Part shown: in pieces, positions 1-61,337 of the stretch
Numbering within the stretch: the stretch's first letter is position 1
How the letters are laid out: each line of letters starts with the position of its first letter
Origin: Candidatus Aminicenantes bacterium
GTDB lineage: Bacteria; Acidobacteriota; Aminicenantia; S016-38
NCBI GenBank assembly: GCA_026991555.1
Contig: JALXBI010000050.1
Span: forward strand, 245-64,244
Direction of reading: 5' to 3'
Length of the DNA: 64,000 nucleotides
The notes under the pieces: generated by a model
What the model saw: only the letters and a program-made list of their open reading frames with translations
What the model was told of the DNA's origin: nothing
Databases searched by the model: none
Translations under genes and position numbers: made by a program

Positions 1-27
1 GAAGCCAGAAAAAAGATAAGATACTAC

Positions 28-630
28 ATGGGGAAAGAGGAATTCAGGTGGGGTGAATGGACACTTCATGGAAATCCTCTTGATACAAAACCAAAAACAG
101 CTCTCAGAATTGATGATACAGAGTGGTTTTTAACAGGCGGTTTAGGAAGCGTTACATTATTAAGAGATATAGACGGAACCATCTACAAGATCGGTCATGC
201 TGCATTTGGACCCTACACTGTTTTAAGAGGTTTAAGAGATAATAAGTTTGATTTGTATGTGTTTGGAAAGCACATTCAAGACTTTGGAGGTTATAATTTG
301 AACTTTGCAGTTCTAAGACTCAGAGATGCTTACAAATACGGTTTTACCGGTTCTCAGGAAAGATACGATATTTACATGTTGGGGCTAGGCGGTGGCTCTA
401 TCCATGTATGGTTTGAAGTGCCGAAAGGTTATGAAGTTGTTGGTTTGATGCCTAGTATATCAAAAATTGTCCAAAAGGATAAAGATGGGGAAATCGTAAA
501 TGTATATGTTAGGGGAATGTATGTGGCATTGAAGAATAAAGAAACTGGGGAAGCATCTATCATTGGAGTTGGTGTTGGGGAGGATAAATATGGCATTTCC
601 GTGACTTTTCTCTTAGCCACGTCTAGGTGA
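28..630 (+). CDS. hypothetical protein, first gene of the low-GC accessory island; may extend 5' beyond the window edge
   Basis: ATG at 28 with an open frame back to position 1. No family recognised. The Gly-rich segment GVGVGEDKYGIS near the C-terminus loosely resembles a RAMP/Cas6 G-rich loop. Local GC is lower than the rest of the window by eye. Confidence 0.4.
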   Translation: MGKEEFRWGEWTLHGNPLDTKPKTALRIDDTEWFLTGGLGSVTLLRDIDGTIYKIGHAAFGPYTVLRGLRDNKFDLYVFGKHIQDFGGYNLNFAVLRLRDAYKYGFTGSQERYDIYMLGLGGGSIHVWFEVPKGYEVVGLMPSISKIVQKDKDGEIVNVYVRGMYVALKNKETGEASIIGVGVGEDKYGISVTFLLATSR

Positions 631-2228
631 AAAGGATGGTAATAGTTTTCCAAATTGATCTAGTGGGTGGTGAAACAGGAAAGAATCGACACTTGACACG
701 AGAAACAACAAAAACCCAACTCTCTCAACTCGAACAAGAACTTCGAGGATATGGCTTCACTAACGAAGAAATTAAATTCATAATAAGCAGTCCGGAATTC
801 GTTAGAGATATTTTAGTGGCTTATCTTAACCTGAAAAAACGAGGAGTAGATAAGAAAACTTTACCTAAGCAGGTTCTTGATCAGCTTAATCTTCCAGCTA
901 ATCCACCAGCTTTTATTCCAATGGGATATGTAAATATAGCAAATCCTCTGGTTCTTTATTCTCAGTTGGTAAACCGTTTTGTTGATAAATTTCAAAAAAT
1001 GGAGAGCGAAGGAAAAAATTTAGCATCTCTCCAAAACCTCATAGAACAAAGATTTTCATTCAAACTGGATGGTGAAAGGGTTTGGATTTATCTAAGTAAA
1101 GGAGAGGAAGGAAAGGCAATGGAGCAGGAGAAATGGAAATTCCGCATACCACCAGGATTACGCAAGAGCAACCCGGATTTGGCTCGGTTTTTTGATTTAA
1201 GCAATAAATTCAATATTGATGCGAGATCATGGATTGAGAATCCAGAAGAAGCGGCTAAGCAGTTTAATGATGAGGTTAGAAAGAGATTATTTAAAAAGAC
1301 TGAAAAGAAACCCGATTTAGTATTACACTTCGCAGAAATGTTCAAAGATATTAAATCAGATAAATTCCAACCTAAAAATTATGAAAGAGAACTAACATTC
1401 ATACGCGTGTTCTCCGAGTTTGATAATGCTGGAAAGTCAAAGCATAAGGACTATGTTAGAACCTATGTTTTAATACCTCTTGCAACAGGAGAAGCAACTG
1501 GAACTCAATTACTGAAAAGGGCAAAAGGTGATTTAAAGACTCTATTAGGACTTAAGGACGAAGATATTAACAAAATGGGTAAAACCGAACTTCTTATAAT
1601 GTGGGGAATTGTGAAAGGAGAGTATAACTGGTACTCATCTGTTCTTGGAGAGAGATTAGCAAAACTTGCACTCCGCTATCTTTACAGAGCAGATAAACGC
1701 CTAAATAAACGCTTTTTATCTTCTCTGAATTATCCTCCTGAAGAATATGGAAAAGAATATGAAATAGCAGTTGAGTTAGTTAAGTTTGATGTTAAGAATA
1801 GAAAGTTAAGTAAAAAAGATGGTAAACTTTTAGTAGTAGCACTAGCTAAGAAACTTACAGAAGATGCTTCCTTCTTTGTTAAAAATAAAACACTAACTCC
1901 AGATGAAGCGGCTTCCATGTTAAATGGATATATCTCCACAGTAGGAAAACTCTTTGGAAAGGATGTTGGGGATTTAGTCAAAGGAGCAATTCTAAGAACA
2001 TTGATACAGCTTGGAATGGAAGAAGTAACAGGTAAAATGCTTGATTTATCGTTGTCCAGATTCTTCAATAAAGACGGTTCTATAAAGAAAATCTCTGAGC
2101 AAGATGCAAAGGAAATTTTAGAAGAGTTAAATTTTGTCTTAGAAATGCCTCTCCCAGTAGGTCCAAACCGTCAAAACCAAATTTTCCCTCTGTTTCAGAA
2201 TTCAGCGTGGAACATTCTTTATTTGTAA
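627..2228 (+). CDS. hypothetical 533-aa protein, translationally coupled to the upstream ORF; no recognisable catalytic motif
   Basis: The start overlaps the stop of the previous gene (GTGA; GTG at 627 or ATG at 636). The ORF is long, AT-rich and uninterrupted, and predicted soluble. Confidence 0.4.
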   Translation: MKRMVIVFQIDLVGGETGKNRHLTRETTKTQLSQLEQELRGYGFTNEEIKFIISSPEFVRDILVAYLNLKKRGVDKKTLPKQVLDQLNLPANPPAFIPMGYVNIANPLVLYSQLVNRFVDKFQKMESEGKNLASLQNLIEQRFSFKLDGERVWIYLSKGEEGKAMEQEKWKFRIPPGLRKSNPDLARFFDLSNKFNIDARSWIENPEEAAKQFNDEVRKRLFKKTEKKPDLVLHFAEMFKDIKSDKFQPKNYERELTFIRVFSEFDNAGKSKHKDYVRTYVLIPLATGEATGTQLLKRAKGDLKTLLGLKDEDINKMGKTELLIMWGIVKGEYNWYSSVLGERLAKLALRYLYRADKRLNKRFLSSLNYPPEEYGKEYEIAVELVKFDVKNRKLSKKDGKLLVVALAKKLTEDASFFVKNKTLTPDEAASMLNGYISTVGKLFGKDVGDLVKGAILRTLIQLGMEEVTGKMLDLSLSRFFNKDGSIKKISEQDAKEILEELNFVLEMPLPVGPNRQNQIFPLFQNSAWNILYL

Positions 2229-2471
2229 ATATCTCCCCTGGCGCCTATGTAATCCACATAGATGGAGTTTTCCTCCTCTTCCATCCAGAAAATTACCCTG
2301 TATTTCCCAACTCTGAACCTCATATACCCTTCCCATTCTCCAACCATCTTTTTCACCCTAAGAGTTTTAAAATCACCCTCAGCAAGGAGCAGGAGTCGTT
2401 GTTTGATTTTTTATCTCTGTGATGGGGCAAGTCTCTTCAGAAAACTGGCTGCTCGTGGGTGAACTTTTACT

Positions 2472-2663
2472 TTATATTTCTGCAAGGTTCACATAAGCGT
2501 TGGGGTCCTTTCTTTCCTTTTTGGCCTTTTTCAGGTGCTCTTTTACTTCCTCTTCAAGGTCCAGGCCCAGAAGTTCCTCTATTTTCTTGTATTCTTTCCA
2601 GGGAATGATTATCTCCGCAGGTTTTCCCTTTTCGTCGTAAATTATTTTCTTGTGAATCTTCAT
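2472..2663 (-). CDS. small antitoxin-like protein (Phd/YefM- or AbrB-like, uncertain), orphan
   Basis: An internal start MKIHKK is preceded by GGAGG. The KIIYDEKGKPAEIIIPWKEYKKIEELLG pattern resembles the DNA-binding antitoxin families. Confidence 0.3.
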   Translation of the reverse strand: MKIHKKIIYDEKGKPAEIIIPWKEYKKIEELLGLDLEEEVKEHLKKAKKERKDPNAYVNLAEI

Positions 2664-2827
2664 TCCTCTTCCTCCAGATACATTATACCATCTTCCCACC
2701 ATGCACGAAAAGGCACTGAGCCTCTCTTCCCTAAAAAGCGAAAAGGGAACAGACCATGAACCAAAGGTTCGGGCAAATTTTATTTGATTTTTTCATACAT
2801 TATCATATAATATATGAGGAAGTAATC

Positions 2828-3055
2828 ATGGTGAGAAAAACTGTTAACATTAGCGAAGATTTAATAAAAGAACTCAAGGTATATGCCAGGAAGGAATCCA
2901 GGGATTTTTCCAGCGCATTGAGGCACATCTTAAGGATAGGTCTTCTTGCCCTTCAGAACCCGGAACTTACAGCCAGGGAAATAATGGATATTCTGGAAGC
3001 AAAAGCGGAACTGGAAGAAGGTCTGATAGAGGAATTTACCCTTGAAGATATTTGA
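2828..3055 (+). CDS. ribbon-helix-helix (CopG-like) antitoxin
   Basis: ATG at 2828 (MVRKTVNISEDLIKELKVYARKE...). Short and basic, and it overlaps the following RelE-like gene by 14 nt. Confidence 0.55.
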   Translation: MVRKTVNISEDLIKELKVYARKESRDFSSALRHILRIGLLALQNPELTAREIMDILEAKAELEEGLIEEFTLEDI

Positions 3056-3269
3056 AACGAGAAAATTTCGGCAGTTGAGGAAAAAAATCAGGGATGATAG
3101 GGAGAAGCAAGCCCTTAAGAGGGCAATATTGGAGATCGTCCAGAACCCCCTGGCTGGCAAGAAGTTGAAGGGGGAATTCAAGGAATTTCGCAGTTTCCGA
3201 TATTTTTCCAGGGGCCAAGAAAGGAGACTTATCTATAAATACGAAAATCAGGCGCTTTACCTTATCTAA
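3042..3269 (+). CDS. relE: RelE/ParE-family toxin, C-terminus apparently truncated
   Basis: MKIFETRKF...LEIVQNPLAGKKLKGEFKEFRSFRY...RLIYKYENQALYLI matches the RelE/ParE pattern, but it stops before the usual C-terminal ighRkdvY segment. The last codons lie inside repeat block A1. Confidence 0.55.
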   Translation: MKIFETRKFRQLRKKIRDDREKQALKRAILEIVQNPLAGKKLKGEFKEFRSFRYFSRGQERRLIYKYENQALYLI

Positions 3270-3329
3270 AATTTTCTCTACTGGAGTTCTACATTCTATC
3301 AGTCCATTTTGCCCTGGAAGTAAAGTTCT
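3230..3329. repeat. split direct repeat copy A (38-nt block 3230-3267 and 31-nt block 3299-3329)
   Basis: Block 1 is tatctataaatacgaaaatcaggcgctttaccttatct. Block 2 is tcagtccattttgccctggaagtaaagttct. Both recur at 4284-4387. Confidence 0.7.
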
Positions 3330-3342
3330 GTGTCCCCAATCA

Positions 3343-3360
3343 GGGACAGGTCCGATTTTG
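3343..3360 (-). repeat. single inverted copy of the GGAC-CT-GTCC short-repeat family
   Basis: gggacaggtccgattttg is the near reverse complement of aaaattcggacctgtccc, which is repeated at 53251-53327 and 57560-57776. Confidence 0.5.
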
Positions 3361-3400
3361 ACCTTCCAATAAATCGGGTGACTCATGATAAAATAGTCTT

Positions 3401-3679
3401 ATGAAGGAAAAGAGATTAAAGGAGCTTATAGAAAAAAATAAGCCTCTTTTCTGGTGGATTAAGGAACCGGATAAAATAAGCGAAGAACTGGTGGTTGAGA
3501 CTATTCTAAACTACGGAACCAGAGAGAGCGTAAAGGAGCTTTTTGAAATTCTTGGAACGGAAAGGGTGGCGGAGATATTCTTTTCTCAGATAAAAAGAAA
3601 GAGGAAGAATTACCATCCGAGAACCATAAATTTTTTCACCCTTTATTTCAGCCATGCACGAAGAGATTCTAACACCTGA
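3401..3679 (+). CDS. small partner protein of the AbiEii-like toxin (putative antitoxin)
   Basis: ATG at 3401. Overlaps the downstream nucleotidyltransferase gene by 26 nt. Basic C-terminus. Confidence 0.3.
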   Translation: MKEKRLKELIEKNKPLFWWIKEPDKISEELVVETILNYGTRESVKELFEILGTERVAEIFFSQIKRKRKNYHPRTINFFTLYFSHARRDSNT

Positions 3680-4268
3680 ACAGAGCGAACTCCTCCCCTT
3701 GCTGAAGATGTTTTCCGAAGAATTTTATCTTGCTGGAGGAACTGCAATAGCTCTTTACCTCGGCCATAGAAGGTCCATTGATTTTGACCTTTTCACGAAA
3801 AAACTTCATCCCATGAGGGTAAAGAACAGGATAAAAAAATCAGGGTTCAATGTGGATAGCATAATATTTGAAAGCAGCGAGGAGCTCCACTTGGTGGTAA
3901 ACTCTGTCAAAATAAGTTTTGTGGAGTTTCCCTTTGATATTCCTCCTCCTGTGCTTTTCAAAGACATCATTACCCTTCCCTCCCTTTTAGATCTTGCAGC
4001 GATGAAGGCTTACGCTCTGGGAAGCAGGGCTAAATGGAAGGACTATGTGGATTTTTATTTTCTTTTAAAATACAAATTCACGGTGGAAGAAATCATAAAA
4101 AGGGCAAAGGAGATATTCTCAGGCTATTTCAACAGTAAGCTTTTCCTTGAACAATTGGCTTATTTTGAGGATATAGATTACAGCGAAAATGTGGATTTTA
4201 TAAAAGAGGCTCCTTCTGATGAGGAGATAAAGGAATTTTTAAGGGAGGTTTCCCTGCAGGATTTTTAG
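3654..4268 (+). CDS. AbiEii/AbiGii-family nucleotidyltransferase toxin (type IV TA / abortive-infection family)
   Basis: The N-terminal YLAGGTAIALYLGHRRSIDFDLF motif is typical of this nucleotidyltransferase family. Confidence 0.6.
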   Translation: MHEEILTPEQSELLPLLKMFSEEFYLAGGTAIALYLGHRRSIDFDLFTKKLHPMRVKNRIKKSGFNVDSIIFESSEELHLVVNSVKISFVEFPFDIPPPVLFKDIITLPSLLDLAAMKAYALGSRAKWKDYVDFYFLLKYKFTVEEIIKRAKEIFSGYFNSKLFLEQLAYFEDIDYSENVDFIKEAPSDEEIKEFLREVSLQDF

Positions 4269-4283
4269 CCCCCTTGCAAAGCC

Positions 4284-4387
4284 TATCTATAAATACGAAA
4301 ATCAGGCACTATACCTTATCTCCTTTGGTCCCAGGGAGAAGATTCTTTTTATAATCTCAGTCCATTTTGCCCTGGAAGTAAAGTTCT
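4284..4387. repeat. split direct repeat copy B (block 4284-4321, 36/38 identical to A1; block 4357-4387, 31/31 identical to A2)
   Basis: Direct comparison with 3230-3329. The internal spacers differ (31 vs 35 nt). Block B2 overlaps the stop of the minus-strand gene 4357..6132. Confidence 0.7.
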
Positions 4388-6132
4388 ATGCCCTTTACCG
4401 CCCGTAGGCCGTCGGCTATGGCTGATATGGCATCCGCCACCCTGTTGGCCACATCTCCTCCTGCGAATATCCCTTCCACCGAGGTCATCTGCCGGTGGTT
4501 TACCTTTATTCTTCCCCTTTCCACTTCCATTTTCTCGGCTATTTCCGGGGGAAGGAAACTCAGGTCAGCCTGCTGGCCTATGGCAACTATTATCCTGTCC
4601 ACCACAAGCTCGTATTCCTCCCCTTCTATAAGAACAGGTTTGGGCCTCTTTCCTGGCCCCTGGTCCACCATTTTCGCCTTTCCGTAAACCAGTTTGACTT
4701 TACCTTCAGGGGCATCCTCTACCCTTATGGGGATAATCTTTTCCCATATCCTCACCCCTTCTTCCTCTGCCCCTTCAATTTCCTCGTGGTCTGCGGGCAT
4801 ATCCACCTTGCGGCGGCGATAGGCTATGGTAACTTCGGCTCCCAGTCTGCGGGAAACCCTGGCAGCATCCATGGCCACATCCCCTCCACCTATGACCACC
4901 ACCTCTTTCCCAACCTCCACAGGTTCTTTGAAGTTAATCTTTCTGAGAAAATCTATGGCATAGATTACATTAGGATGGTCTTCTCCGGGAACCCCTAAGG
5001 TCCAGGGTTTCATAAGTCCAACCCCTATGTATATGGCATGGTGTTTTTTCATGAGTTCCCTGAACCTCTCCTGGTCCACGAAATAGTTAAGCTTAAGTTC
5101 CACACCCTGGCTAAGTATGAAATCCACTTGTTTTTTAAGGGATGGGAAGGGGAAGCGGTATTTGGGAATTCCCGCCATGGTCATGCCGCCCGCCTCAGGC
5201 ATGGCCTCGTAAACGGTTACCTTGTATCCCCGAAGGGCAAGGTAGTAGGCGGCGGTGAGCCCCCCAGGGCCTGCCCCTATTATTCCCACGGATTTGTCCT
5301 TGGGCTCTGCCTTCTTAACCTTTATTACCTGCTTCAGGTCAGAGAACCTTTCAGTGGCAAACCTCTTGAGCCATCTTATGGCAACGGGGTCGCCCTCGTG
5401 GCCTAAGGAACAATAGGATTCGCACCTTCTGGTGCAGACCTTTCCGCAGAGCTCCGCAAAGGGGTTGTTCTCATACATGATGTTCACGGACCTGGCGTAT
5501 TCCCCAGAGGCTATGGCCCTTATGTAATCGGGTATGTGCATGCGGTCAGGACATCCGGCTATACAGAGGCCACATCCCACGCAGCGGTCCGCCTCCCTGC
5601 GGGCCTCCTCCTCGGCATACCCCAGGACCACCTCGGCAAAGGTCTCCACCCTTTCTTCCGGAGGAAGTTCCCTCATGGGAACCCTGTGGTAATCGGTGAA
5701 ACTGTGCTCCTTGTCCTTCCTGTATCCCTTTTCCTTTTTCTCAAATCCCTTTATGTGATAACCGGGTATGTAAACGAAGTCGTCGGGGGTTTCCCTTACC
5801 CAAATGTATTCGTTGGTCATTCTCAAGGAGGTGGTGGGACACGAGTCCACGCAAAGGCCGCACCAGCAACACCTTCCGTAATCAATTCTGGGACGGAAGC
5901 CTGAATCCCCCTTCTTGGGCTCTATTCCCTCCACAGGGACCATATCTATGGCTTCATTGGGACAGACTGCGGCGCATGTTCCGCACCCTATGCATTTTTC
6001 AAGGTCATTTACATGGAATCCCCTGTATCTTTCGGCAGCCTCCCTGGAAACCTTGGGAACGAGGATGGTATGGGGCCTTTTGGCTATCTGCCTCCAGGCA
6101 CCTAAGGGTTTTAAAACTTCTTTGAGTCCCAT
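4357..6132 (-). CDS. fusion protein: NuoI/MbxN-like 2x[4Fe-4S] ferredoxin plus GltD/NfnB/SudA-like NAD(P)H-dependent FAD oxidoreductase
   Basis: N-terminus has CIGCGTCAAVCP and CCWCGLCVDSCP (a NuoI-type dicluster). Next come CVGCGLCIAGCP and CGKVCTRRCESYC (GltD N-terminal Fe-S region). Then GIIGAGPGGLTAAYYL (FAD Rossmann fold) and VVVIGGGDVAMDAA (NAD(P)H Rossmann fold). RBS AGGGAGG lies upstream. Confidence 0.7.
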   Translation of the reverse strand: MGLKEVLKPLGAWRQIAKRPHTILVPKVSREAAERYRGFHVNDLEKCIGCGTCAAVCPNEAIDMVPVEGIEPKKGDSGFRPRIDYGRCCWCGLCVDSCPTTSLRMTNEYIWVRETPDDFVYIPGYHIKGFEKKEKGYRKDKEHSFTDYHRVPMRELPPEERVETFAEVVLGYAEEEARREADRCVGCGLCIAGCPDRMHIPDYIRAIASGEYARSVNIMYENNPFAELCGKVCTRRCESYCSLGHEGDPVAIRWLKRFATERFSDLKQVIKVKKAEPKDKSVGIIGAGPGGLTAAYYLALRGYKVTVYEAMPEAGGMTMAGIPKYRFPFPSLKKQVDFILSQGVELKLNYFVDQERFRELMKKHHAIYIGVGLMKPWTLGVPGEDHPNVIYAIDFLRKINFKEPVEVGKEVVVIGGGDVAMDAARVSRRLGAEVTIAYRRRKVDMPADHEEIEGAEEEGVRIWEKIIPIRVEDAPEGKVKLVYGKAKMVDQGPGKRPKPVLIEGEEYELVVDRIIVAIGQQADLSFLPPEIAEKMEVERGRIKVNHRQMTSVEGIFAGGDVANRVADAISAIADGLRAVKGIELYFQGKMD

Positions 6133-53250: not shown

Positions 53251-53327
53251 CTGTCCCCTTTGGTGAATTCGGACCTGTCCCGTTTTTCAGGAGAATTGGA
53301 AATTCGGACCTGTCCCTAAAATTTCGG
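53251..53327. repeat. two tandem copies of the GGAC-CT-GTCC short repeat in a divergent intergenic region
   Basis: gaattcggacctgtcccgttttt at about 53265-53287 and gaaattcggacctgtccctaaaatttcgg at about 53298-53327. Confidence 0.7.
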
Positions 53328-57508: not shown

Positions 57509-57559
57509 CCTGATTTCGTAGGAAAGGTTCGGAGTGGTAAATTTGAAATAAAAAGAATC

Positions 57560-57776
57560 AAAATTCGGACCTGTCCCGTTTTTGGAATCAAAATTCGGAC
57601 CTGTCCCGTTTTCAAAATTCGGACCTGTCCCGTTTTTGCAAAATTCGGACCTGTCCCGTTTTTGGGCTCGTTTTTGGAATCAAAATTCGGACATGTCCCG
57701 TTTTTGGGCTGGAAGAAGGGAGAATTTTACCGCCCGGCCCCTGACACCTAACACAGCATTCTGTCCCTAAAATTCG
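57560..57776. repeat. tandem array of five ~24-bp direct repeats AAAATTCGGACCTGTCCCGTTTTT plus a partial terminal copy
   Basis: Copies start near 57560, 57590, 57614, 57640 and 57682, with spacers of 1-18 nt. The fifth copy has one substitution (ACATGTCC). The partial copy ctgtccctaaaattcg is at 57761-57776. Confidence 0.85.
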
Positions 57777-61196: not shown

Positions 61197-61254
61197 ATCC
61201 TAATTATAGCAGAGATTGACAGGGGTGAAGGCCTTGATATATAATTTTTTACCT

Positions 61255-61328
61255 GGCGGCGTAGCTCAGTTGGTTAGAGCATGCGGCTCATATCCGCAGC
61301 GTCGGGGGTTCAAATCCCTCCGCCGCCA
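61255..61328 (+). tRNA. tRNA with anticodon CAU (elongator Met, or Ile2 after lysidine modification)
   Basis: Cloverleaf: acceptor GGCGGCG/CGCCGCC, D-arm AGCTCAGTTGGTTAGAGC, anticodon stem TGCGG/CCGCA with loop CTCATAT, T-arm GGTTCAAATCC. CCA is not encoded. Confidence 0.85.
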
Positions 61329-61337
61329 TTTTTTTTT

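Follow-up and report, generated by a model that had tools for sequence, protein, structure and literature searches.

An AT-rich, lineage-restricted two-gene cassette in Aminicenantes-like bacteria that appears to evolve by allele exchange at a repeat-marked insertion hotspot

The first 2,228 nucleotides (nt) of a 64,000-nt stretch of Candidatus Aminicenantes DNA (assembly GCA_026991555.1, contig JALXBI010000050.1, positions 245 to 64,244; hereafter the window) carry two open reading frames on the same strand, ORF1 and ORF2, which we refer to as gene 1 and gene 2 when all related loci are meant. Comparison of these loci shows the region to be a real AT-rich, lineage-restricted, recombining two-gene accessory cassette. 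With regard to its role, we tentatively favor the hypothesis that the pair is a mobile conflict-type cassette in which an exported protein is encoded together with a matched cytoplasmic partner. The features of the pair are as follows.

1 to 630, + strand: 3' part of ORF1 (C-terminal 209 codons), frame open from base 1
181 to 1395, + strand: hyper-divergent allelic block, from about ORF1 codon 61 to about ORF2 codon 253, seen when the window is compared with the related locus L001
636 to 2228, + strand: ORF2, 530 amino acids (aa); an alternative GTG start at 627 would give 533 aa
636 to 1268, + strand: ORF2 N-domain, residues 1-211, ending in ...AAKQFN; variable and modular, the part kept in truncated relatives
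1329 to 2141, + strand: ORF2 C-domain, residues ~232-502, a helical-hairpin bundle according to the structural model
2148 to 2228, + strand: context-dependent tail of ORF2, the last ~27 codons; similarity to L002 and L005 stops near 2128-2147

The pair recurs in conserved form in 10 other contigs, all distinct, that come from several metagenomes and metagenome-assembled genomes (MAGs) and are numbered here L001 to L011, L001 and L007 being one contig. When the window is compared with L001, the regions flanking the block, which are ORF1 codons 1-60 and ORF2 from codon 254 onward, differ hardly at all, with a synonymous divergence (dS) of at most 0.085. Within the block dS is mostly 0.43-0.87, with lower values of 0.13-0.15 over the first ~128 ORF2 codons. 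The ratio of nonsynonymous to synonymous divergence (dN/dS) in the block is 0.15-0.3 for ORF1 and 0.4-1.2 for ORF2, and it is about 1.2 over ORF2 codons 1-68. The alleles are also mosaic. The ORF2 relative P0010 is 95-100% identical to its homolog in L004 at residues 21-140 and then 85-100% identical to the window at residues 141-203; similar identity switches are found in other alleles of the ORF2 N-domain, which is built of interchangeable modules, and some ORF2 alleles contain extra copies of a ~55-aa helical unit. These comparisons show that the cassette evolves by recombinational exchange of alleles.

A shared truncation point is found at the end of the N-domain. Five ORF2 relatives (P0010, P0011, P0013, P0014, and P0015) stop at exactly ...AAKQFN, and the DNA junction at this truncation, CAGTTTAAT followed directly by TAAAAACGGGACAG, is identical in L005, L009, L010, and L011. 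The cargo after the identical junction differs, being a DUF433/PIN toxin-antitoxin (TA) cassette in L005 and an AAA-ATPase_like/PDDEXK_9 gene in L009, L010, and L011. A copy of a dispersed repeat starts directly after ORF2 codon 211, close to the boundary between the two domains. In L005 (positions 3355-4358), the TA cassette past the junction has repeat copies on both sides and stands in place of ORF2 codons ~212-465, and the 117 nt that follow it are 100% identical to positions 2031-2147 of the window. The L005 cassette thus took the place of the middle of a window-like ORF2. Its position inside ORF2 shows that the TA genes were inserted independently in a common hotspot and are not functional partners of the pair. 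A partnership between the TA genes and the pair was rejected on two grounds, namely that L002 has no TA genes and that in L005 the TA cassette interrupts ORF2.

The dispersed repeat is a unit of ~26 nt, CAAAATTCGGACCTGTCCCGTTTTTG with the variant GGGGACAGACCCGA, and has the palindromic core GGACnnGTCC. There are 9 matches in the window compared with 1.15 expected by chance, with copies at 3343-3355, at 53269-53316, and, five in tandem, at 57558-57700. In the relatives, copies are found at 1160-1430, 3365-3500, and 4160-4220 of L005, at 200-450 of L008, and at 1384-1402 and 3255-3300 of L009; seven of them lie between recD2 and ORF1 in L005 and L008. The copies cluster in intergenic regions, at cassette junctions, and near contig ends. 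They resemble repetitive extragenic palindromic (REP) sequences and bacterial interspersed mosaic elements in being ~26-nt units with a palindromic core that form intergenic tandem clusters and lie at rearrangement junctions and contig ends, but no RAYT-type transposase was seen in the available sequence, and a stem of this length could not form a stable hairpin. We infer a role for these REP-like repeats in moving the cassette from the fact that they lie at junctions. The locus as a whole is an insertion and rearrangement hotspot, marked by REP-like repeats, that gathers TA cassettes independently, and the TA modules stand beside the pair because this common hotspot collects them.

The related loci are listed here with what distinguishes them.

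L001: TA context as in the window; 84-93% nucleotide identity
L002: pair directly abuts PTA, POR, and acetate-kinase genes; ORF2 split; no TA genes
L003: 44%-identical ORF1 with a frameshift; short 170-aa ORF2-like gene; DUF234 ATPase and HEPN/NT genes as neighbors
L004: contig labelled Candidatus Aminicenantes
L005 and L008: recD2-like helicase upstream (left neighbor) in both
L006: full-length ORF1 and a 344-aa partial ORF2 with an alternative C-terminal half
L009, L010, and L011: AAA-ATPase_like/PDDEXK_9 gene follows the pair, then ACPS; UvrC is next in L011

In every locus, including the 44%-identical L003, the GC (guanine plus cytosine) content of the pair is 33-39%, compared with 45-55% in the flanks. 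The right flanks are of at least three kinds, that is, gltD/Nuo-like genes in the window, PTA/POR genes in L002, and the series AAA-ATPase/PDDEXK_9-ACPS-UvrC in L009-L011, and TA or accessory genes stand beside the pair in all loci but one. L002 and L011 come from the same metagenome (ENA ERZ23491050) and represent two of these contexts, PTA/POR and ACPS/UvrC. Since the pair is AT-rich in all its hosts and has differing right flanks within one metagenome, it is accessory and mobile and not core. Truncation of gene 2 affects at least 6 of the 10 related loci; in L003 and L009, gene 1 has a frameshift or is split. The C-domain of ORF2 is near-identical between the window and L001 (dS 0-0.05); in L002 and L005 it has been detached or has lost a part, and L009-L011 lack it. 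The same pair was thus not found as part of the core genome of relatives, in which the right flanks differ and disruption is frequent.

Several peculiarities of individual contigs are recorded with these loci. In L003 (280-340 and 820-910), a short tandem repeat (GATGGTAGACGGTG-like units) lies upstream of the ORF1 homolog, and a +1 frameshift near position 830 splits the homolog into calls of 187 aa and 207 aa, which may reflect either a sequencing error or a true pseudogene. In L004, the called 434-aa ORF2 homolog (305-1609) runs through a REP-like repeat at 1305-1317 into apparently non-coding DNA, and its true length is probably about 330 aa. Of the 10 related contigs, 8 start inside ORF1 or at most 425 nt upstream of it, which is accounted for by the dispersed repeats together with strain-level allelic heterogeneity. 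We rejected the idea that these breaks are caused by an upstream CRISPR array or rRNA operon, the sequence visible there being a recD2-like gene and then REP-like repeats.

The compositional contrast that first drew attention to the region is real. A preliminary description of this DNA, made from the letters alone, had estimated by eye that a low-GC pair stands against core genes of 50-58% GC. Computed over the sequence, GC is 36.5% for positions 1-2228, compared with a mean of 47.1% (sd 2.2%, minimum 42.5%) for all 2228-nt windows in the remainder of the 64 kb (z = -4.9), so that the profile is not uniform; the figure of 50-58% applies to the nearest core genes only. Low GC reaches ~4300 (0.383 for positions 1-4300), and the TA genes have ~40% GC. 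GC at third codon positions is 0.33 in ORF1 and 0.28 in ORF2, compared with 0.60 and 0.58, respectively, for the gltD-like and NuoD-like neighbors, both of which were confirmed as core-type genes.

Both frames of the pair are present on the same strand as described, with some revision of their ends. The ORF1 frame is open over 1-630 (209 codons, with an ATG at 28), and the suspicion that it continues upstream is borne out by its full-length relatives, which have 343-363 aa against the 209 codons in the window. The stated 533 aa of ORF2 are obtained only from the GTG at 627, and only this start produces the 4-nt overlap of stop and start on which a claim of translational coupling was based. The ATG at 636 is the better candidate because it is preceded by an AGGTGA box 6 nt upstream, because the database copy of ORF2 (P0001, 530 aa) begins there, and because the spacing between the two genes in relatives is 14-22 nt. 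This ATG lies 5 nt past the ORF1 stop and is most likely the true start, hence the two genes would not overlap. They are tightly linked, and coupling through a stop/start overlap is not established.

With regard to the first protein, full-length relatives are available in P0004, P0007, and P0008 (343-363 aa) and in positions 22-1080 of L011 (352 aa); the protein database search returned six ORF1 relatives in all. The N-terminus of the full-length relatives consists of a basic stretch followed by a hydrophobic segment of 17-19 residues (Kyte-Doolittle 19-residue mean 1.9-2.2), and this arrangement of basic n-region and hydrophobic segment is present in P0004, P0007, P0008, L003, and L011. Gene 1 looks like a ~350-aa beta-rich protein whose N-terminus is consistent with a Sec signal peptide or membrane anchor. 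Given these relatives, the window holds just the C-terminal 209 codons of a putatively exported or anchored protein, and the N-terminal ~150 codons, with the putative signal peptide or anchor, would lie upstream of it. The family has 43 invariant columns, including AVLRL..AYKYGF.G..ER.D and EVP.GYEVVG, that are held down to 40% identity, and the overall dN/dS of ORF1 between the window and L001 is 0.26; ORF1 is thus under purifying selection.

The ORF2 product is predicted by AlphaFold2 with confidence (predicted local distance difference test, pLDDT, 79.1; predicted template modeling score, pTM, 0.75) as a two-domain all-alpha protein. The helical N-domain includes a three-stranded sheet at residues 141-170 and ends with a helix at 203-218; after a loop at 219-231, the C-domain consists of helical hairpins up to residue 502, and residues 504-530 have a pLDDT below 50. 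These last residues fall in the tail that reads into the flank, where it overlaps the 3' end of a convergent RelE pseudogene. No transmembrane segment or signal was found in ORF2 (maximum Kyte-Doolittle 19-residue mean 1.13), which points to a soluble cytoplasmic protein. A Foldseek search with the model gave no match in the PDB (best E = 0.28) or among the predicted viral proteins of BFVD (best E = 0.039), with TM-scores of at most 0.22; the top neighbors, all non-significant, are helical-repeat, 14-3-3, and TPR proteins. Structure prediction and comparison, which the preliminary description had suggested as a check, thus yield for ORF2 a confident model that matches nothing in these collections.

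Sequence searches place ORF2 in an equally narrow circle. A word-indexed search of 5.8 billion proteins returned ORF2 itself and two relatives, a profile search gave a total of nine proteins including the query's own database copy, and an exhaustive HMMER scan of 1.84 billion cluster representatives gave 7 relatives. The best library match of ORF2, a SHOCT-like motif at residues 485-499, is sub-threshold (16 bits against a cut-off of 27). These searches suggest that ORF2 has no relatives outside a narrow lineage of uncultured bacteria. Both protein families and the ORF2 fold are undescribed, and ORFan pairs on variable islands are common in MAGs.

Scans of ORF1 and ORF2 against Pfam, NCBIfam, PADLOC, and PHROGs gave no significant match, in agreement with the earlier statement that neither protein has a recognizable enzymatic motif, and the strong homology to a housekeeping family that would have told against the accessory status of the pair was likewise not seen in Pfam or NCBIfam. 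Together with the at least three right flanks and the frequent disruption, this speaks against membership in a core family. When every family member was scanned singly against Pfam and PHROGs, only scattered sub-threshold matches appeared, and two single-member PHROG matches, to a tape-measure protein (E = 0.002) and a tail fibre (E = 0.0038), were judged to be due to chance. In PADLOC-DB 2.0, no family matched ORF1 or ORF2 at E <= 0.1 or the full-length relatives P0004 and P0015 at E <= 0.001, the sole match in this test being the neighboring AbiEii gene. Profile searches of PDB sequences with both proteins gave nothing significant (best E = 0.083-0.18). In tblastn searches, neither ORF1 nor ORF2 matched PLSDB plasmids or INPHARED phages, and a scan of 2.9 million viral contigs (IMG/VR) with the ORF1 family gave no match; the pair accordingly could not be assigned to prophage, viral, or plasmid genes by PHROG, INPHARED, PLSDB, or, for ORF2, BFVD. 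No integrase, transposase, capsid, or other mobile or viral gene adjoins the pair in any locus. Nor do ORF1 and ORF2, with ~350 aa and 530 aa and without a TA Pfam domain, qualify as a type II TA system, which combines a DNA-binding antitoxin of some 70-130 aa with a small toxin from a known superfamily. No CRISPR-like, diversity-generating-retroelement-like, or other template/variable repeat pair was found in positions 1-6000, and Rfam gave no match in positions 1-4500 at E <= 0.1.

Under the conflict-cassette hypothesis, the gene 1 product would act at the envelope or outside the cell, either against competing cells or as a surface determinant that viruses recognize. The N-domain of gene 2 would serve as the partner matched to it allele by allele, holding, neutralising, or escorting the gene 1 product before export. 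Because of this matching, exchange would have to involve the whole pair at once; gene 2 could do without its C-domain, and the cassette would be easily lost or broken without selection. We favor such a matched-partner module given that the divergent block takes in both the C-terminal part of gene 1 and the gene 2 N-domain, the very domain that truncated loci keep. Several observations weigh against this hypothesis. No toxin, immunity, chaperone, or secretion domain was recognized in ORF1 or ORF2, the most conserved motifs of the ORF1 family lie in its C-terminal half (the classical polymorphic toxins have unrelated C-terminal folds), and gene 2 with 530 aa greatly exceeds the usual size of immunity proteins. 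Why a protein exported by Sec should need neutralising in the cytoplasm is not obvious, and in P0007 and P0008 the basic stretch KDRRKDKRK after the hydrophobic segment leaves the topology of that subtype ambiguous. The AlphaFold2 model of ORF1 is unusable (pLDDT 38). Furthermore, the co-divergence of adjacent segments may be explicable by simple linkage, and an element in decay and without function would account equally well for the truncations of gene 2 and the frameshifts of gene 1.

A more specific form of the proposal, which we consider doubtful, is that the pair represents an undescribed two-component conflict module, in which an exported beta-rich effector or surface determinant is combined with an allele-matched cytoplasmic all-alpha protein of new fold. 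Such a module would spread and diversify among thermophilic Aminicenantes-like bacteria through cassette exchange at REP-like repeats and would serve either in antagonism between strains or as a barrier to viruses at the envelope. Should the pair prove to be a working conflict module, the catalogue of antagonism and defence systems would gain a new protein fold and a new architecture of exported protein and cytoplasmic partner, in a phylum without cultured genetics, and cassette exchange at short dispersed repeats would have a clear natural example. Otherwise, the pair is a further lineage-restricted case of ORFans on a variable island, and the lesson is that TA adjacency and low GC mark an insertion hotspot and not necessarily a defence system.

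The preliminary description had seen in the region the typical context of a novel anti-phage system and hence candidate defence-island cargo. The view of the pair as foreign-looking accessory cargo holds, as it is AT-rich everywhere, lacks housekeeping homology, and has at least three kinds of right neighbor; the anti-phage part is unsupported, since there is neither a PADLOC match nor an effector domain. A new two-gene anti-phage system, in which one protein senses infection and the other is the effector, is in our judgment unlikely. It would agree with the low GC and variable position of the locus, with the TA or Abi-type neighbors in the window, L001, and L005, with the allelic diversification that is typical of conflict genes, and with the neighbors of several relatives: in L003 the DUF234-type ATPase matches the PADLOC candidate PDC-S27 and the HEPN/NT nucleotidyltransferase matches PDC-S09, and in L009-L011 the AAA-ATPase_like/PDDEXK_9 gene adjoins the pair. 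However, no defence model is matched by the pair or by its full-length relatives, no nuclease, ATPase, or other effector-type domain was found, and a putatively exported gene 1 product would be unusual for a defence system. The surroundings are TA modules and one AbiEii gene and not a dense island of established defence systems, and TA modules build up in any hotspot; one of them interrupts ORF2 in L005, and the L002 pair lies directly against core metabolic genes and has no defence neighbor at all. The truncation of gene 2 in at least 6 of 10 related loci and the frameshifted or split gene 1 of L003 and L009 also speak against a working system. These same disruptions favor a different explanation, likewise improbable in our estimation, under which the pair is what survives of a mobile element or virus in decay, two AT-rich ORFans moved by recombination at REP-like repeats and functionless in most genomes. 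The AT-richness kept in all hosts, the extreme rarity of the family, the dN/dS of about 1.2 over the first 68 ORF2 codons, and the weak, non-significant PHROG matches to tape-measure and tail-fibre proteins would fit such a remnant. Set against it are the lack of any mobile-element or viral gene adjoining the pair in the loci and of any match in INPHARED and PLSDB for both proteins or in the 2.9 million viral contigs for the ORF1 family, together with the fact that the two genes stay together in at least three contexts. ORF1 shows the marks of purifying selection (dN/dS 0.26) and keeps its 43 invariant columns down to 40% identity, and the window and L001 have an intact ORF2 C-domain with almost no differences.

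It is quite unlikely, although the putative signal peptide of gene 1 would suit it, that the pair encodes a lineage-specific envelope or surface protein and a cytoplasmic helical scaffold or regulator with a part in accessory physiology, such as adhesion or substrate capture, and that it varies as a target of phages or grazers without being a weapon or a defence. The solenoid-like helical structure of gene 2, whose non-significant Foldseek neighbors are helical-repeat, 14-3-3, and TPR proteins, and the recD2-like helicase that is the common left neighbor in L005 and L008 are consistent with it, but the right-hand context varies among loci, the pair is AT-rich relative to its host and often lost or truncated, and no DNA-binding or signaling domain was found in gene 2. 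Finally, non-coding AT-rich DNA or a chimeric metagenomic assembly could give spurious long frames, and the breaks of most related contigs in or just upstream of ORF1, together with the L004 call that runs through a repeat into non-coding sequence, might be read in this way. This explanation is essentially excluded because the substitutions in ORF1 are preferentially synonymous, the structure of ORF2 is predicted with confidence, and conserved long open frames recur in independent assemblies from at least 5 samples; the contig breaks are accounted for by the dispersed repeats and strain-level allelic mosaicism.

Among known systems, the closest analogue in form to the conflict cassette proposed here is found in the polymorphic toxins and their immunity proteins (CdiA-CT/CdiI and Rhs-CT/RhsI), a comparison that rests on general knowledge of those systems and not on homology. 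In both cases two adjacent genes lie on the same strand, a variable block extends over the 3' part of the first gene and the adjoining part of the second (here from ORF1 codon 61 to ORF2 codon 253), and alleles are swapped by recombination, giving mosaics and truncated or orphan copies; the genes are AT-rich relative to the host and the first of them is, here putatively, exported. The pair differs in that ORF1 and ORF2 have no recognizable toxin, immunity, or trafficking domain and no secretion system dedicated to them lies nearby. All alleles share a homologous C-terminal part of gene 1, which contains the invariant motifs, and gene 2, with its 530 aa, has two helical domains of which only the N-domain is variable. 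A recognizable C-terminal toxin domain with unrelated folds in different alleles, as expected of polymorphic toxins, was accordingly not found in Pfam, the PDB, or PHROGs, and the 43 invariant columns argue against one. With defence islands and TA hotspots, the locus shares a low-GC, strain-variable position between core genes with RelBE-, ParDE-, and AbiEii-type modules and, in relatives, PIN/DUF433, HEPN/NT, DUF234 ATPase, and AAA-ATPase/PDDEXK_9 genes. Unlike the cargo of defence islands, the pair matches no defence model, its neighbors are almost all TA genes, and one TA cassette interrupts it. The locus thus resembles a TA-rich integration hotspot more than a strict defence island.

The neighbors of the pair in the window are the following.

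2219 to 2485, - strand: RelE/ParE-family toxin pseudogene with an in-frame stop after codon 24 (PF05016, E = 4.9e-6 with the stop masked)
2472 to 2702, - strand: RelB-like antitoxin (PF18506, E = 2.8e-7)
2828 to 3055, + strand: ParD-like antitoxin (PF11903, E = 1e-7)
3042 to 3269, + strand: ParE-like toxin (PF15781, E = 4.9e-11)
3343 to 3355, + strand: REP-like repeat core GGGACAGGTCCGA, one copy between the TA cassettes (repeat search)
3401 to 3679, + strand: small DUF6922-like gene (sub-threshold), overlapping the AbiEii gene
3654 to 4268, + strand: AbiEii-family nucleotidyltransferase (Pfam and PADLOC scans)

Three TA modules thus follow the pair, as had been described, and are of RelB-like, ParD/ParE-like, and AbiEii type. 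The supposed orphan antitoxin is the RelB-like gene, which has the RelE/ParE pseudogene downstream of it; the 3' end of this pseudogene overlaps that of ORF2, and L001 has a 147-nt deletion in the same region (window 2285-2431). The supposed AbiEi/AbiEii pair contains an AbiEii nucleotidyltransferase, but its partner is DUF6922-like and not a canonical AbiEi. In having an AbiEii-family gene with a small overlapping partner upstream, the module resembles the AbiE type IV TA and abortive infection systems, from which it differs in the nature of this partner; it is also separate from ORF1 and ORF2 and unrelated to them, with a direct repeat of its own. This repeat, of ~106 nt at 3230-3335 and 4284-4393, brackets the DUF6922-like/AbiEii module, was found as two 95%-identical segments of 37-38 nt at equal offset, and spans the 3' terminus of the ParE-like gene as well as a copy of that of the gltD-like gene. 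The module looks like a duplicative cassette insertion.

The start of the ParD-like gene is likely the ATG at 2828, which gives 75 aa as in L001, and not that of a 99-aa frame from 2756. The best sigma-70-like promoter match in positions 1-4500, TTGATT-16-TATAAT (10/12) at 2784-2811, lies just upstream of this ATG. Over the whole 64 kb, where no rRNA, CRISPR-like array, or other Rfam family reached the gathering threshold, the only RNA gene detected is a tRNA-Met (CAT) at 61254-61329.

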